Both the position numbers and the translations under genes were made by a program. The notes below the pieces were generated by a model. It made no database searches. It saw only the letters and a list, made by a program, of their open reading frames with translations, and was not told the origin of the DNA. Of a stretch of DNA of 64,000 nt, positions 31,938 through 58,548 are shown piece after piece. Positions within the stretch are counted from its first letter, which is position 1, and each line of letters begins with the position of its first letter. This DNA comes from a virus (lineage: Duplodnaviria > Caudoviricetes): positions 32,001-96,000 of IMG/VR virus record IMGVR_UViG_3300017721_001026; one strand, 5' to 3'.

Positions 31938-32031
31938 GGGTCTTAAGGATATCTACACACTGTTCTAGGACCTTCTAGAAGGGTCTCTGCAGACGAGAAG
32001 TTACGGGTGTGGAGAGACACGCGCGGGGTCA

Positions 32032-45110: not shown

Positions 45111-45763
45111 TAGTTTTTTCTTCCTGTGTAGATTTTCTTTTCATTATCCCATTCAAAATGGTCAACCATTTCAACATCATCGTCACTTAAGTATAAACCC
45201 CATCCAGTTGCAATATATTTACTGCAAGAATATACGGGATTTCCACGATGAGTATGAGTGTAGAATGCTGGCCAAATTAACATCGTACCTGCCTTTGGTT
45301 GTACTCTGAGACCTTGCCAAAGAAACTCAGTTTCACCTTCACCTTCAGGAATGTCATTCAAATATAACATCCATGCAACACATCTGTCAACGACTCCTAG
45401 ATCATTTACCTCACAATGCCAATCATGAAATCCACCTCTAGGTGAAGTCTTTTGTATTTTTACCTCATCAAAATAGACATCAATATAATCAGAAACCCAA
45501 TACTTTTTACGGTATTGTTCCCAACAATGATCAACAACTTTTAGGACAAGATCTGCACAAGGATTGCCTGATTCCAAGTACCATTGTTCATCATGACGAG
45601 CAAGATAACCTCTCTCACTTTCATCTGAACCATATCCTGCTTTTATTTTACAATCAGAATCGTCGGGATGTTTATAGTTAGATTCAAAGTATTCAATAAC
45701 ATTGTCACATGTAGATTTATCTAATGAATTTAGATAAACACCAATAAAATCACTATCCTTCAT
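45110..45763 (-). CDS. 2OG-Fe(II) oxygenase
   Basis: GGFHDWHCE..WMLYLNDI..GETEF..IWPA.YTHTHRGNP..KYIATGW. Confidence 0.88.
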   Translation of the reverse strand: MKDSDFIGVYLNSLDKSTCDNVIEYFESNYKHPDDSDCKIKAGYGSDESERGYLARHDEQWYLESGNPCADLVLKVVDHCWEQYRKKYWVSDYIDVYFDEVKIQKTSPRGGFHDWHCEVNDLGVVDRCVAWMLYLNDIPEGEGETEFLWQGLRVQPKAGTMLIWPAFYTHTHRGNPVYSCSKYIATGWGLYLSDDDVEMVDHFEWDNEKKIYTGRKN

Positions 45764-47121
45764 ACAATCCAGGTTATGATAGAATATCTAGTTCCTTCAG
45801 TTACAGGTAAAATCTCATGTGGGTACATAAAATTAGATGGGAAAACTAATACATCACCAGCATTGAGTTTATACACTAATTCACGGTTGAATAGTGCAAC
45901 TTCACCACCTTCATAACCATCATTCATTGACATAATGACAGTCAATGCTCTAGGTTGGTCTTTAAATGAATCAGTATGCTGAATATAAAAGTCACCTTCT
46001 TCATACTTTAGTAGTTCATATCCACTATCTTCTTGAATCTCCAATTCAAATTCAGGATAACTTTCCTGATATTCTTCAATGATACCTTTTACAACATTAA
46101 AGAGATAATTATCAATTTCTCTCCTACCCTCTTGATTATTTTCCTCAATAACTGCTTGATCTGAAATTGGAATAAACTCACATCTTCTTGCATCTGGATC
46201 ATGCCCAGCACCAGTTAATGTACTCTCCCAATAGTTAGTTGGAGCATATTCTTCCAAAAGTTTATCGCAAAAATCTGGATCAATAAACTCTTCTTTGTGC
46301 CAGACAAAATGCTCCAAACTAAAACGACTTAATTCCTTTGTTTTAGTTTGTATTTCTGGTGTATTCTTAGGTTTAAGGAACTTTTCATATTTACTATTTG
46401 CTATAACAACGTCATCAAAATTGATATATTGTTCTGTTTCATCATCCTGTTCAATAATATCTAATGAGGATGACTGTTGATCTCTATATTTTTTAGGGAG
46501 AATTGTTTTTGTGGATACATGGTCAAATTTGTTTTTCATTTCATCATACTCCTTTTGTAGTGCTTCATGATCTTCAATGTCTTCTGTGATTAGTCTATCA
46601 AAATATGTGCAACCATACATTCCTCTACTTCTCACATAGTGTAAGAAGATTTGTGCATAATAGTCACCTTCAAATCTACCTCTCCAGTGTGGAGAAACAC
46701 AACCTAAGTATAACACAGCATCACCAGGATTCAAAGTGATGCATTTTTTTACACTTTCTGGTGTCTCAATCCAGATTGCCCAAGGTTTATCACCACCAAG
46801 ATGTACTGTCATTGATATTTCACAAGCAGGACGATCTGTGTGCCTCTTAAGAACACTGTCGTTGCGATATATTCTGGAGTAAGTATATGTTGGTAGAACA
46901 GTTTCACCGATAAGTTCACTAACTGTGCTAGTTTTATTGGTGAGTAATTCTATAGCAGGATGAAAGTTAAAGCATGATGAAGAGTTTGGTGCCTGTTCAT
47001 CACCTTCAAACTTAAATTGTGCGTCTGTTACGATAAACTCTGTTTCTAATCTTTTAGCATAATCTAAATCAATAAAACCAGGAACAACAATGTAGTTGTT
47101 TTTCAATAATTCAAGTTTCAT
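45760..47121 (-). CDS. Tandem two-domain 2OG-Fe(II) oxygenase
   Basis: Domain 1 LKRHTDRPACEISMT..HWR; domain 2 YIQHTD..YEGGE..FPSNFMYPHEI.PV..GTRYSI. Confidence 0.88.
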   Translation of the reverse strand: MKLELLKNNYIVVPGFIDLDYAKRLETEFIVTDAQFKFEGDEQAPNSSSCFNFHPAIELLTNKTSTVSELIGETVLPTYTYSRIYRNDSVLKRHTDRPACEISMTVHLGGDKPWAIWIETPESVKKCITLNPGDAVLYLGCVSPHWRGRFEGDYYAQIFLHYVRSRGMYGCTYFDRLITEDIEDHEALQKEYDEMKNKFDHVSTKTILPKKYRDQQSSSLDIIEQDDETEQYINFDDVVIANSKYEKFLKPKNTPEIQTKTKELSRFSLEHFVWHKEEFIDPDFCDKLLEEYAPTNYWESTLTGAGHDPDARRCEFIPISDQAVIEENNQEGRREIDNYLFNVVKGIIEEYQESYPEFELEIQEDSGYELLKYEEGDFYIQHTDSFKDQPRALTVIMSMNDGYEGGEVALFNRELVYKLNAGDVLVFPSNFMYPHEILPVTEGTRYSIITWIV

Positions 47122-47127
47122 ATGTCA

Positions 47128-48474
47128 TTACTTATCGTTTTTATCTAGAACTTCTTTTAATGCAGCAAACCATTTAACTGCCTTATCTAGAGGCATTCCA
47201 TTACCATCGTCTCTCTCATCATCTGTAAGAGTAGTGTATAGTTTTTCTGGATCAATTTCATCCATGAGTGACAAAATGTCATCAACACTATATTCTTGAC
47301 CACTCTCAATTTCTTGTCTCTCTATACTTTCTTTAGCAAGTTTAGATAGTTGACTTGGATCAGTGTTTTCTGCCTTATGTGATTCAAGAAGTTTTGCTCT
47401 TTGCACTTCTCTATACTCTTTCTCTGCCCTATCAAATTCTCTCTCTAATGCATCATCAAGTTCATCATATGTCTGTTCAATATCCATTTTCTTAAGAACT
47501 TCTTCATGAGATCTCATGATAATATCCATCTCATGATCAACTTCCTGTTGGAATTTTTTCTGTTCCAACTCATGATCAAGTTTCATTTTTTCTCTCTCAC
47601 GCACAACTTCTTCCATTGTAAATTGTGCATCACCCCATGCAGTTTCAAGTCCTTGCTTTTGAAGTTCAAGTTCCATTCTAGAAATTTCAATTTGTTCTAG
47701 TTCAAGTTCACGAACTTTATCATCATTTGCTCTCTTAAGTTCTTTTTCTTGCTCATCTTCAAGAATGTTCTTTTCGAGAAGTTCTGTTTCTCTTTCCATC
47801 TTATCACGTTCCATCTGAAGCAGTTCTTGATACTGCTTTCTTTCCTCAATAAATTCTTCCTTTTCTTTTTCAAAACTATGATAAAGTTCATCATACTTTT
47901 TAGAAAGTTCTAAAGACTTTTTCTGAAAGAATTCATCTGCTTTTTGTTGTTCAAGTGCTGCAACTTCTCTTTCTCTTGCTGCTTTTTCTCTCTCAAGTTC
48001 CATCAGAGTGGTTTGCCTATCATAGACACTTTTCTGTTCTTCTTTAGATTTTAGATCGTAAAGTTTTTCTTTCTCACTACGAAGTTCTTCATTTTGCTTT
48101 TGAAGATCATTAATGATGACAAGTTGTGCTTCTTTCTCAAGTTTATCAATGTTCAATTCTTCAATCTGCTTAGAAAGATTTTCCTCTTCTTCTAATGCCG
48201 CAGCAAGTTCTCTCTGCTCATAGATTGACAAGAATGTATTAAAATAGTCTAGATATGGTTGAACAATAGTATCAAATTCATCTTCACTAAAAATTTTATT
48301 TGGTACAGGATCTTCACCAATGACATCTTCATATTCTAATTCACCTCTGCCATCTCTCCACTGAATTGCATGGACAGTTTCATCATCAAAGTCCCAAGGT
48401 GCATTATCCTCAAGATCAACAGTCTTACCATCTACAATAATTTTTTTATCTTCTGGGATGATGGAAATTTTCAT
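47128..48474 (-). CDS. Acidic long coiled-coil protein with a tail-fibre-assembly-like N-terminal domain
   Basis: N-terminus IIPEDK.IIVDG..VHAIQW.DG.GELEY; ~300 Pro-free Glu-rich helical residues (aa 74-372). Confidence 0.6.
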   Translation of the reverse strand: MKISIIPEDKKIIVDGKTVDLEDNAPWDFDDETVHAIQWRDGRGELEYEDVIGEDPVPNKIFSEDEFDTIVQPYLDYFNTFLSIYEQRELAAALEEEENLSKQIEELNIDKLEKEAQLVIINDLQKQNEELRSEKEKLYDLKSKEEQKSVYDRQTTLMELEREKAAREREVAALEQQKADEFFQKKSLELSKKYDELYHSFEKEKEEFIEERKQYQELLQMERDKMERETELLEKNILEDEQEKELKRANDDKVRELELEQIEISRMELELQKQGLETAWGDAQFTMEEVVREREKMKLDHELEQKKFQQEVDHEMDIIMRSHEEVLKKMDIEQTYDELDDALEREFDRAEKEYREVQRAKLLESHKAENTDPSQLSKLAKESIERQEIESGQEYSVDDILSLMDEIDPEKLYTTLTDDERDDGNGMPLDKAVKWFAALKEVLDKNDK

Positions 48475-48857
48475 TGTTGTTCCTCGTCAGATTCGGGTAG
48501 TAAATTTTCTTCTTCATTATCTATACCTTCGATTTGTTCAATGTATTCAGAAACATTGACACCCTGTGCTTCACACATATCAAGATACATATTGCCAACG
48601 GCATCTAACATGTTCTGATTAGTTTCATGTGCCTTTGTCATTTCATTACGGAATGATTCAACAGCAGAACTTGTAGATCTTTGTTGTTGACTATTTTCAA
48701 TCATCAACATTGGCATCCATTGAACTGCACAAGACCAATGATCTACTGGATTTCCAGTGTTAGGATCTTGCCCAGTGATATGTGTATACCATGCACACTT
48801 ATGTTCGACACAATCTTTTTTAATAAGCGGACACCACTTGCCAGTTGATTTAGTCAT
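48471..48857 (-). CDS. 4-Cys putative metal-binding protein associated with fibre genes
   Basis: CPLIKKDCVEHKCAW..WSCA..P.L.IENSQQQRST..AVESFRNE. Confidence 0.65.
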   Translation of the reverse strand: MTKSTGKWCPLIKKDCVEHKCAWYTHITGQDPNTGNPVDHWSCAVQWMPMLMIENSQQQRSTSSAVESFRNEMTKAHETNQNMLDAVGNMYLDMCEAQGVNVSEYIEQIEGIDNEEENLLPESDEEQQ

Positions 48858-48870
48858 AAGATAAAATTCA

Positions 48871-48884
48871 GTGTATTATTTATT
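48871..48884 (-). promoter_or_regulatory. Late promoter (AATAAATA) for the Cys protein / coiled-coil / oxygenase genes
   Basis: Minus strand ATAAATAATACAC; the same 13-mer occurs at 50731-50743. Confidence 0.6.
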
Positions 48885-48893
48885 ATAGCACGA

Positions 48894-50156
48894 TCAATCC
48901 AAACTGCAAAGAATCACATCAATATATTGAACTCTCAATGGTGATAATCCTGCTGTAAATGATATTGGAGATCCAGTAAATGGATGAACGTGTGCTTGAC
49001 CACCACCAGTTGATGATGTTGCAGGTGCTTGAGTATTATTTGCCCTGATAGTACCACCAGGACTCAAAGTTCTCAATGGGAATCTTATACTCGTAACTTG
49101 AGGATATCTTTGAGGTGTACGATATGCTCTTGGTTGTCTATAGGATGCAGGATTTCTTTGAGGAACTGTTATTCTAAACGGAATATCCACTCGGAAACCA
49201 TTTCTCTGCCTGAATGAATATCTCACTCTAAATGTTCTCGGTTGCCTCTGTCTAAAATCTCTTCTCTGCCTACCATTTCTGGGTTGTCTAAAGTTACGAG
49301 GTTGACGGAAAGATCTTCTCTGTCTTCCAGATACAGGTCTTCGAGTTTGCCTTCTTTGCCTATAACTTGTATTTCTAGGTTGTCTTCTTACTGCTCTTCT
49401 TGGGAATCTATCGTTTCTTCTACGTCTCCCTCCTCTTCTTCTTGGTTCTCTATCATTCCTTCTTACACCAACACGGAAAGAGTTTGGAATTGGTCTTCTA
49501 CTTCTTCCACCACCCTGACGGAAACTAAATGGTGCTCTAGATCTTAATGGAACACGGAAAGGAACAGGAACTCTGAAAGTAAATGGATTTCTAGAACGTG
49601 TTTGATATCTAACTCTAAAGTTTCTTGGTTGTCTCTGTCTAAGTGGAACTCTCTGCCTTTGTGGTTGTCTATAGTTAAGAGGTTGTCTTACATTTGTTGG
49701 TTGTCTAAAATCGACACTAACTCTAGTGTCTAGAACAATTCTAGTTGATGCTCTAATATTATATCCACGTGGTTGTCTATTATTTTGTCTAAATGGTGAA
49801 GAACCTTCGGAAGATCTATATGAATTAGGATTACTTCCAGTGTTATGTGTATGTGCAGGAAGTTGATCTGTTGTTAATGTTGTTGGTCCAGTGCTTCCTG
49901 AAAGAGTTGAAGAAACAGTGCTGTCTGCACCAGAATCATTAAATAATGTAGTGAAACTTACAGATCCAGCAGATGATCCACCAGTACCATCAACAACTCT
50001 AAGTGATTTATCGTTTTCTGATATATCTTTAGTCCAACCAGTTGGTGCTGCCGCCTGGTAAAATACCATCGTAGAGGATTGAGGAATAATCCCGTAAAAA
50101 CTATTTAACTGACTGCCACCACCAAACTGAATTCCGTCTGCCTTTAAAATTGACAT
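48894..50156 (-). CDS. Short tail-fibre/collar-type protein with HxH motifs and a ~260-aa Arg-rich insertion
   Basis: Collar-like FYQAAAPTGW..LRVV.G.GG; TTLTTDQLPAHTH..GGGQAHVH..VQYIDVILC; paralog of 50167-50703. Confidence 0.75.
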   Translation of the reverse strand: MSILKADGIQFGGGSQLNSFYGIIPQSSTMVFYQAAAPTGWTKDISENDKSLRVVDGTGGSSAGSVSFTTLFNDSGADSTVSSTLSGSTGPTTLTTDQLPAHTHNTGSNPNSYRSSEGSSPFRQNNRQPRGYNIRASTRIVLDTRVSVDFRQPTNVRQPLNYRQPQRQRVPLRQRQPRNFRVRYQTRSRNPFTFRVPVPFRVPLRSRAPFSFRQGGGRSRRPIPNSFRVGVRRNDREPRRRGGRRRRNDRFPRRAVRRQPRNTSYRQRRQTRRPVSGRQRRSFRQPRNFRQPRNGRQRRDFRQRQPRTFRVRYSFRQRNGFRVDIPFRITVPQRNPASYRQPRAYRTPQRYPQVTSIRFPLRTLSPGGTIRANNTQAPATSSTGGGQAHVHPFTGSPISFTAGLSPLRVQYIDVILCSLD

Positions 50157-50166
50157 ATCTTATACC

Positions 50167-50703
50167 TCAACTAAAACGACAGAGAATGACATCAATATAT
50201 TGAACTCTCAGATCAATACTTCCAGAATATGGTGATGCTCCACCAGAAAATGGGTGAGTATGTGATGTTCCACCACCAGTTGGTGATGTTGCAGGTGCAT
50301 CAGAATTTACAGCACGTCCACCAATACCAGGAGATCCAGGACTTACGTTAACTTGAGAACCCGCATTGTGTGTATGTCCAGGAATTTGCTGAGTGGTCAA
50401 TGTTGTTCCTCCAACAGTACCAACAGCAGTTACAGTTCCACTAATTGGACGAGTTGATGTGGGAAATATGGTAGAGAATGGTTGTCCACCAGGACCAGCA
50501 GTTCCACCAGAACCAAATCCTCCACCAGAACCAGATACAACTCTAAGTGCTTTATTATTATGAGTGGTTACTTGTGCCCATCCACTGGGTGCTGATGGTT
50601 GATAAAACACTGCTACACTATTCTGAGGAATAATGCCATACTTAGAGTTTAAAACAGTATTATCAAGTCCAAATTGTATACCACTCGTTTGCAGAATAGA
50701 CAT
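50167..50703 (-). CDS. Short tail-fibre/collar-type protein with HxH motifs
   Basis: FYQPSAPSGW..ALRVVSG..TTLTTQQIPGHTH..GGGTSHTH..VQYIDVILC. Confidence 0.78.
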   Translation of the reverse strand: MSILQTSGIQFGLDNTVLNSKYGIIPQNSVAVFYQPSAPSGWAQVTTHNNKALRVVSGSGGGFGSGGTAGPGGQPFSTIFPTSTRPISGTVTAVGTVGGTTLTTQQIPGHTHNAGSQVNVSPGSPGIGGRAVNSDAPATSPTGGGTSHTHPFSGGASPYSGSIDLRVQYIDVILCRFS

Positions 50704-50730: not shown

Positions 50731-50744
50731 GTGTATTATTTATC
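50731..50744 (-). promoter_or_regulatory. Late promoter-like (GATAAATA) for the fibre paralog pair
   Basis: ATAAATAATACAC, shared with 48871-48883. Confidence 0.55.
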
Positions 50745-58317: not shown

Positions 58318-58548
58318 CTATTTATTATATACACCTCTGGGATACATCTGACCAGACTGTGGTCTCCCTGGTGCATTCCACCCACGTTGCTGTGTAGTTA
58401 ATCCCACAACAGAAAAATTAACACCAAGTAAATTTGCATCACGAAATATAGGATTTAATGTTATTGTTGTTACTTTTGTTGATTGAAAACCAGTAGATAA
58501 ACCAGAAGATTGAACTGATCCTAATGATGGGATAGAATAATCTGCCAT
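58318..58548 (-). CDS. Small virion-associated protein, paralog of 60259-60537
   Basis: MADYSI..RPQSGQMYPRG.YNK. Confidence 0.7.
   Translation of the reverse strand: MADYSIPSLGSVQSSGLSTGFQSTKVTTITLNPIFRDANLLGVNFSVVGLTTQQRGWNAPGRPQSGQMYPRGVYNK

Follow-up and report, generated by a model that had tools for sequence, protein, structure and literature searches.

We analysed a window of 64,000 nucleotides (nt) from a tailed phage (Duplodnaviria; Caudoviricetes; IMG/VR record IMGVR_UViG_3300017721_001026, positions 32,001 to 96,000), whose source record is a 153.8-kb viral contig estimated to be 67% complete. An open reading frame (ORF) on the reverse strand of this window encodes an acidic protein of 448 amino acids (aa), which is probably a tail-fibre assembly or accessory protein carrying a giant helical insertion, and whose N-terminal domain (N-domain) belongs to a family new to the databases. 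Since the N-domain is always encoded downstream of a fibre with an HxH tip, and since its short relatives carry the Phage_tail_APC domain, the best reading is that the 448-aa protein is an elongated, lineage-specific member of a large unnamed fibre-tip accessory family and acts as a fibre-tip assembly factor, a reading that we hold with about even confidence. An initial annotation, made from the sequence of the window, had instead described a Glu-rich coiled coil whose length and charge match those of an Arg-rich needle, and had proposed that it serves as a charge-complementary chaperone, sheath or ruler.

In the order of transcription, several 2-oxoglutarate (2OG)-Fe(II) oxygenase genes are followed by genes for a 178-aa fibre protein, a 420-aa fibre protein, a 128-aa protein with four cysteines (the 4-Cys protein), the 448-aa protein and a two-domain oxygenase. 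The DNA of the window is about 80% identical and syntenic to that of Synechococcus phage S-SCSM1, a Kyanoviridae myovirus, in which the homologue of the 448-aa protein, SSCSM1_247, is annotated as a hypothetical protein. The 448-aa ORF is a real gene under purifying selection. It has 48 homologues with 35–81% identity, every one of them 440–470 aa long, and the ratio of nonsynonymous to synonymous substitution rates (dN/dS) was 0.06–0.42 in all three parts of the protein, namely the N-domain, the rod and the C-terminal part.

The N-domain family is encoded behind fibre tips

Searches with the whole 448-aa protein returned nothing in Pfam, PHROGs or NCBIfam, nothing meaningful in a sequence-profile search of the PDB, and no usable match in the ESM Atlas. 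A profile hidden Markov model (HMM) of the N-domain was then searched against 1.84 billion cluster representatives (E ≤ 0.001), and recovered 1,103 of them, with the clade of the 448-aa protein at the top of the list and the domain N-terminal in every case. Most of these proteins are 75–220 aa long, and a few are 420–491 aa long. The family hallmarks seen in alignments A2 and A6, the H-A-I-Q/H-W motif and an invariant G and E, are all present in the 448-aa protein. The N-domain itself has no Pfam model and no match in the PDB; a word-based search for shorter relatives gave fragments only, and a scan with the pattern HAIQW[NRK][DN] gave nothing new. Fold searches with the N-domain model gave a best Foldseek E-value of 0.76 against the PDB and a best structure-comparison Z of 3.9, the latter reflecting a common arrangement only, while a search of BFVD found uncharacterised phage proteins only. 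Among these was A0A8S5MY66, a 404-aa protein from an unrelated uncultured myovirus (Myoviridae sp. ctWaE18), which matches the N-domain fold with an E-value of 3e-6 and 28% identity.

To examine genomic context, approximately 260 loci were taken from assemblies and viral contigs, with either the 448-aa protein or the fibre as anchor, and their ORFs were classed by iterated profiles. Complete genes were present in 94 distinct loci, and in every one of them the N-domain protein is encoded just downstream of 1–3 genes ending in an HxH tip or collar-type fibre, usually with a homologue of the 4-Cys protein placed between the fibre gene and the N-domain gene. The suggestion of the initial annotation that the N-domain is of a kind found beside fibre genes is thus borne out, and the gene for the 448-aa protein occupies the place directly downstream of the fibre gene that it would serve, as seen across the 94 loci and in the cultured phage described below.

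The short relatives of the 448-aa protein point to the function of the family. Behind the N-domain they carry PF16778 (Phage_tail_APC), with scores of 61, 53, 50, 49 and 72 bits against a cut-off of 26.6, and PHROG 4912, annotated as tail fiber assembly, spans the N-domain region of relative P0077. Even with a threshold of E ≤ 1, PF16778 matched neither the whole 448-aa protein nor its last 69 aa. With a PF16778 domain as seed, jackhmmer recovered 10 short relatives and no long-rod form, and a jackhmmer profile of the C-terminal domain (C-domain) of the 448-aa protein matched only long-rod forms.

A complete cassette is present in the cultured Roseobacter phage CRP-361, a T7-like podovirus (OR420750; locus L268, 435–3938). 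Its gp39 is a 914-aa T7-type tail fibre (PF03906), the last 160 residues of which are 46% identical to the 178-aa protein (E 6e-20), gp40 is 52% identical to the 4-Cys 128-aa protein, and gp41, which overlaps gp40 by 4 nt, consists of the N-domain followed by PF16778. As the tip of gp39 is homologous to the 178-aa protein, both the 178-aa and the 420-aa protein are fibre-tip domains encoded as separate proteins, and by its position the 448-aa protein corresponds to a tip-specific assembly protein. The order of fibre tip, 4-Cys protein and N-domain protein is shared by myoviruses and this cultured podovirus. Given the homology between the CRP-361 fibre tip and the cyanophage tip, the tip domain seems to be exchanged between podoviruses and myoviruses as a cassette with its two helpers.

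The long forms, which combine the rod with a homologous C-domain, fall into class I, which includes the phage of the window, and class II. A third class of N-domain proteins, 258–352 aa long with net charges of −34 to −75, is encoded beside two or three tandem insert-less tip proteins of 170–190 aa (loci L075, L078, L079, L140, L144, L149, L156, L246, L258, L260 and L262). Their middle part is helical and, in L260, contains internal tandem repeats; their tail is rich in D/E and bears two conserved motifs, FDGNVDPSLFDD and DLSVLDSEFNLELLF. When cultured phages were searched by tblastn with classes I, II and III, the sole match was S-SCSM1.

The insertion is predicted to be a single long acidic helix

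The stretch from aa 74 to aa 372, described in the initial annotation as about 300 Pro-free, acidic helical residues, was confirmed in its composition: it comprises 299 Pro-free residues with a net charge of −36, in a protein with an overall net charge of −60 and 29% D+E. In an AlphaFold2 model built from a 26-sequence alignment, the strands of a beta N-domain lie within aa 3–62 and are followed by one unbroken helix over aa 84–366, with a predicted local distance difference test (pLDDT) score above 90 over approximately aa 120–320, and by a small helical C-domain of low confidence. The N-domain modelled separately (aa 1–95, 74 relatives) reached a pLDDT of 92. The presence of a long acidic helix in the 448-aa protein is shown by these models, and its 283 residues, at 0.15 nm each, would span approximately 42 nm.

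The coiled coil originally proposed is not confirmed by the sequence of this helix, in which heptad periodicity is weak. Occupancy of heptad a/d positions exceeded that of shuffled controls (z ≥ 2) only for segments starting at aa 147–189, covering approximately aa 147–225, and the whole-rod spectrum had no peak at the 3.5-residue hydrophobic periodicity, either in the protein's own sequence or in the family average. The rod contains 28% LIVMFYW and 48% charged residues (E 23%, K 11%, R 7%), and opposite-charge i,i+4 pairs are enriched along it (z = 3.2). We also considered an ER/K single alpha-helix, and rejected it because the rod, with its 28% LIVMFYW, is too hydrophobic and does not have the composition of such helices.

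Long rods occur only beside fibres with an Arg-rich insert

The 420-aa fibre protein encoded upstream of the 448-aa protein differs from its 178-aa paralogue by an Arg-rich insert between two HxH motifs. In the fibre alignment A7, most inserts of class I have the conserved element RRRGG-RRRR at their centre, and those of class II have an equivalent that is R-rich and contains G. This central element lies halfway from one HxH motif to the other, which fits a hairpin turn. Relative to class I, the inserts of class II have approximately 74 more residues and are richer in N, Q and P.

Co-occurrence of rod and insert was sampled from both anchors, the N-domain protein and the fibre. Long forms (420–502 aa) were found beside Arg-insert fibres in 32 of 32 distinct loci, while the other N-domain proteins (74–352 aa, without the homologous C-domain) were beside insert-less fibres in 62 of 62. 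A long version beside an insert-less fibre, one of the arrangements that would have spoken against the pairing proposed in the initial annotation, was thus encountered in none of the 62 loci. Conversely, every insert-bearing fibre with sufficient downstream sequence precedes a long form. Three apparent exceptions turned out to be acidic fibres of 900–1,200 aa that had been mis-flagged by a crude Arg-count rule. In a tree of the N-domain the long forms make up one clade (support 62), so the association of rod and insert probably reflects one origin followed by faithful co-inheritance, and not repeated co-evolution.

Rod length and charge are not matched to the insert

We next compared lengths between the two classes. 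The HxH-to-HxH distance in the fibre is 275–297 residues in class I (mode 284) and 353–381 residues in class II. The distance from the QPY motif at the end of the N-domain to the DP motif of the C-domain is 330–337 residues in class I and 349 in class II, and the Pro-free stretch reaches up to 333 aa in class I and is exactly 338 aa in 17 of the 17 tabulated class II loci. Identity to the window protein is 35–81% within class I, and identity within class II is 21–42%. From class I to class II the insert grows from approximately 284 to approximately 358 residues (about +74) and the rod by 5–13, a slope of about 0.1–0.2, and within the classes rod and insert lengths correlate with r = −0.11 and −0.29. 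The proposed scaling of 1.1–1.2 helix residues per insert residue does not hold, and in these comparisons rod length is strongly constrained yet not set by the length of the insert.

Charge was compared in 31 loci, where the negative charge of the 448-aa protein correlates with the positive charge of the insert with a raw r of 0.85 (0.91 in class I), and with r = 0.59–0.65 in phylogenetic contrasts. As controls, other proteins were contrasted with the insert in the same way: the adjacent oxygenase gave r = 0.64, the 4-Cys protein 0.51 and unrelated flanking ORFs 0.46, compared with 0.65 for the 448-aa protein. Charge covariation was dropped as specific support once these controls were seen to covary too. 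The GC content of the locus explains little of the variation in charge (r = 0.29 for the insert). The median charge per residue is −0.16 in N-domain proteins beside neutral insert-less fibres versus −0.10 in the long forms, and N-domain proteins beside insert-less fibres reach net charges of −68 and helical stretches of 70–170 aa. Acidity is thus a trait of the N-domain family and not an adaptation to the insert, and a charge match to the insert is not supported, as the relatives beside insert-less fibres are the more acidic per residue and the covariation is non-specific. Of the match in length and charge first noted, the arithmetic of about 42 nm holds for this phage, as does the total for the whole protein in its own clade, but the charge on the helix itself amounts to only about half that of the insert in class I, and to about a third in class II. 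A match between the charge profiles of rod and hairpin in class II (r = 0.69, p = 0.06, 8 bins) was rejected as evidence. A prediction of the complex between the full-length 420-aa fibre (A7) and the 448-aa protein (A1) scored 0.00 and has no bearing either way.

Proposed role as a fibre-tip assembly factor

We propose that the N-domain would dock on the HxH tip domain while the fibre is being made, and that the 448-aa protein, together with its 4-Cys partner, would assist fibre assembly, as a holdase or by aiding trimerisation, rather than be a major part of the virion. The helix of approximately 283 residues, with its own C-domain, probably arose once, in the lineage where one fibre paralogue gained an Arg-rich hairpin insert. 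As helix and insert have been retained together since that origin, the helix probably serves the insert; it could, for example, keep the polycationic arms soluble and off nucleic acid until the trimer forms, and such a holdase-like role toward the cationic arms is plausible. Because its length is fixed independently of the insert and it owes its acidity to the family, the helix would be neither a ruler nor a stoichiometric charge-matched sheath. Of the three functions first suggested for the protein, a fibre-linked chaperone or accessory role fits the family context (PF16778, PHROG 4912), whereas the ruler and the stoichiometric sheath fail the comparative tests.

Several results weigh against this assembly-factor reading. 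The co-occurrence of rod and insert is probably, to judge from the tree, one evolutionary event in effect; across the loci compared, rod length does not track insert length; and covariation of charge with the insert is non-specific and partly locus-wide. The charge profiles of rod and hairpin are uncorrelated in class I (r = −0.10), the 448-aa protein itself gives no direct match to any chaperone family, and the N-domain is without a solved fold counterpart, so that its docking on the tip is suggested by gene order only. The absence of the S-SCSM1 homologue from the virion is weakly evidenced, as it rests on GenBank labels and not on the primary mass spectrometry (MS) table. Counted in favour of the assembly-factor reading, besides gene position, the relatives with PF16778 and the CRP-361 cassette, are the late-promoter-like motif with translational coupling, the pairing of rod and insert (32 of 32 loci against 0 of 62), the lack of a virion label on SSCSM1_247, and the strict conservation of rod length despite identities of 21–45%.

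The same comparisons bear on a simpler explanation, in which the protein is a generic chaperone of the tip domain, the rod serves oligomerisation or spacing and is unrelated to the Arg insert, and the two co-occur by hitch-hiking in a tightly linked cassette. The single clade and single origin of the long forms would be expected on this explanation, as would the lack of length scaling, the non-specific covariation of charge, and the helical extensions of 70–170 aa and equal or higher acidity found beside insert-less fibres. However, the two features were never decoupled in 32 distinct loci, with identity down to about 21–30% and with anchoring on either gene, and both elaborations are large (approximately 250 and approximately 250–300 residues) and under purifying selection. 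We consider this explanation unlikely, though deserving of weight.

A more specific proposal is that the acidic 42-nm helix, with the N-domain anchored on the HxH tip, lies along the Arg arms as a transient electrostatic 'scabbard'. The S-SCSM1-like fibre-tip cassette would then be a maturation system for a polycationic beta-hairpin, with the participation of the 4-Cys partner and the two-domain oxygenase. We regard this as doubtful, a little more so than the generic chaperone; if true, it would represent a chaperone principle, the length-spanning charge shielding of a fibre element, that has not been described for any phage.

Cassette organisation, late-promoter-like motif and oxygenases

The features of the cassette are listed in Table 1.

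Table 1 Positions of the 448-aa protein gene, its parts and neighbouring features in the window.
Feature	Position	Strand	Evidence or remark
Coding sequence of the 448-aa acidic protein (P0001), stop codon included	47128..48474	(-)	Single ORF, translation, homologues, dN/dS
N-terminal beta domain, aa 1-83, invariant HAIQW motif, fibre-adjacent family domain	48226..48474	(-)	AlphaFold2 model, HMM search
Single predicted alpha-helix, aa 84-366, ~42 nm, acidic, Pro-free	47377..48225	(-)	AlphaFold2, composition, periodicity
Variable linker, aa 367-396, and conserved small helical C-domain, ~aa 397-448 (DEIDPEKLY...KAVKWFAALK)	47131..47376	(-)	Alignment A1; AlphaFold2 confidence low
4-Cys 128-aa partner gene, orf128	48471..48857	(-)	4-nt overlap of its stop with the start of the 448-aa gene
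T4-type late-promoter-like motif CTATAATAAATAATAC	48873..48888	(-)	ATAAATA core 26 nt upstream of orf128 ATG
ATAAATA sites, T4-type late promoter core-like	48877-48883, 50737-50743, 58319-58325 and 7 others	(-)	
420-aa HxH tip-domain fibre paralogue with Arg-rich insert	48894..50156	(-)	78 Arg, net +63
178-aa insert-less HxH tip-domain fibre paralogue	50167..50703	(-)	46% identical to C-terminal tip of CRP-361 gp39
Two-domain 2OG-Fe(II) oxygenase, 6-nt gap downstream of the acidic protein	45760..47121	(-)	Pfam PF13640, PHROG 61/3531

The 4-nt overlap between the stop of orf128 and the start of the acidic protein is kept in class I loci. The sequence ATAAATA occurs at 10 sites in the window versus 27 expected, and all 10 are on the coding strand, intergenic and in front of genes, one of them preceding the gene of the 178-aa protein and one lying 26 nt before the 4-Cys gene. 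In 12 of 12 class I loci the core is found 26–27 nt upstream of orf128, with diverging flanks; the 16-mer context CTATAATAAATAATAC is near-identical in class I, with 1–3 substitutions in 5 of the 12 loci. From its distribution, ATAAATA behaves like the core of a T4-type late promoter. The conserved motif and the gene overlap together suggest that the genes of the 4-Cys and 448-aa proteins are probably a late, translationally coupled pair. By their positions, the ATAAATA sites also separate a fibre unit in this region from a helper unit that consists of the 4-Cys protein, the acidic protein and oxygenases.

The 128-aa 4-Cys protein, which has no match in Pfam or PHROGs, follows the pattern CPL..K.C.EHKCAW...W.C..W.P.L.IENSQQQR...ESFRNEM, and is kept in the cassette across all classes, with more than 170 ORFs among the fetched loci. 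It is likely a zinc-binding co-factor of fibre-tip assembly.

The two-domain oxygenase is conserved downstream in class I and in several class II loci, and in one locus (L026, 2726–3328) an oxygenase gene separates the 4-Cys gene from the N-domain gene. The placement of these oxygenases hints that fibre-tip proteins may be substrates of hydroxylation. In the corresponding explanation, the 448-aa protein would serve as a scaffold on which the neighbouring 2OG-Fe(II) oxygenases hydroxylate the Arg/Pro/Asn-rich insert, with the acidic helix holding the unfolded cationic arms. It is encouraged by the P4H-like two-domain oxygenase encoded directly downstream, by the oxygenase within the cassette of L026, and by the acidity of the oxygenase, which covaries with insert charge as strongly as that of the 448-aa protein. 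However, this covariation is partly locus-wide, hydroxylation of the fibre has no supporting evidence, and adjacency is weak evidence in genomes of this type, in which oxygenases are abundant, S-SCSM1 alone encoding 24 (PMC9602691). We therefore consider the scaffold very unlikely, well behind the explanations above.

Comparison with known fibre assembly and whisker proteins

The closest counterparts of the 448-aa protein are the proteins of PF16778 and PHROG 4912, such as CRP-361 gp41, which are likewise acidic, have the homologous HAIQW N-domain, and occupy the same slot with the same 4-nt overlap. They are 130–170 aa long and end in PF16778, whereas the 448-aa protein has a helix of approximately 283 aa and an unrelated C-domain. 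The designation 'tail assembly chaperone' for PF16778 is a family name given by annotation. T4 gp38 and the Tfa-type proteins of lambda and Mu are similar in being encoded immediately 3' of the fibre gene whose tip they serve, and in being specific for the C-terminal tip domain (PMC3004832), but no sequence or fold similarity to them was detected in the 448-aa protein. T4 gp57A, the general chaperone of gp12, gp34 and gp37, offers a further parallel in being all-helical, oligomerising, Pro-free and absent from the virion, and in folding trimeric fibres including gp12 (PMC3004832); the fibre neighbouring the S-SCSM1 homologue was assigned by the authors of that genome to the gp12 type (S-SCSM1 supplement). 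By description, gp57A has 79 aa, no aromatic residues and no globular domains, whereas the 448-aa protein has aromatic residues in its helix and a domain on either side of it.

A different parallel is T4 fibritin (gp wac), which both forms a structural whisker and helps fibres to attach (PMC3004832). By analogy, the 448-aa protein could be an oligomeric strut or whisker, a rod of fixed length (approximately 42–50 nm) with its N-domain on the fibre tip and its C-domain binding another part of the virion or the host, which may aid fibre attachment. The two proteins share a small N-domain, a long helical rod (a helix of approximately 300–340 aa on this view) and a small C-domain, and are similar in size, with 448 aa against 487 aa for T4 fibritin (PMC3004832). 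The constancy of rod length over deep divergence is as expected for a fixed-distance spacer, and the late-promoter-like motif upstream and the adjoining structural genes also fit. However, fibritin, which is part of the virion, has a foldon and clear heptads in segments, whereas heptad periodicity in the 448-aa protein is weak, and the protein has no Pfam match and hence none to the foldon family Fibritin_C. A profile search of the phage's own contig with PF07921 (Fibritin_C) gave no match, with control profiles likewise silent. Furthermore, the short members of the family are chaperone-like and not fibrous. The virion of S-SCSM1 has been analysed by MS, with 45 proteins detected (PMC9602691). 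In GenBank, SSCSM1_244 and SSCSM1_236 are among the proteins labelled as virion proteins; the homologue of the 178-aa protein has this label, and the homologues of the 420-aa, 4-Cys and 448-aa proteins are without it, SSCSM1_247 lacking the label despite many tryptic sites. Taken with these points, a strut is in our judgement an improbable alternative, on a par with the generic chaperone, and the assembly-factor reading is preferred.

Implications for phage fibre tips

The set of three genes encoding an HxH-tip fibre, a 4-Cys protein and an acidic HAIQW protein is common to myoviruses and podoviruses of marine bacteria, and is widespread and unannotated. Annotating the HAIQW cassette would name thousands of phage genes now called hypothetical, and would mark receptor-binding fibre tips. 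The comparisons also carry a caution, in that totals of charge and length that match in one genome failed when relatives were compared. Within the family, the S-SCSM1 clade has an extreme pair, an Arg-rich insert of approximately 250 residues and an acidic helix of approximately 280 residues that are never found apart, and since S-SCSM1 is in culture, this pair is experimentally tractable.

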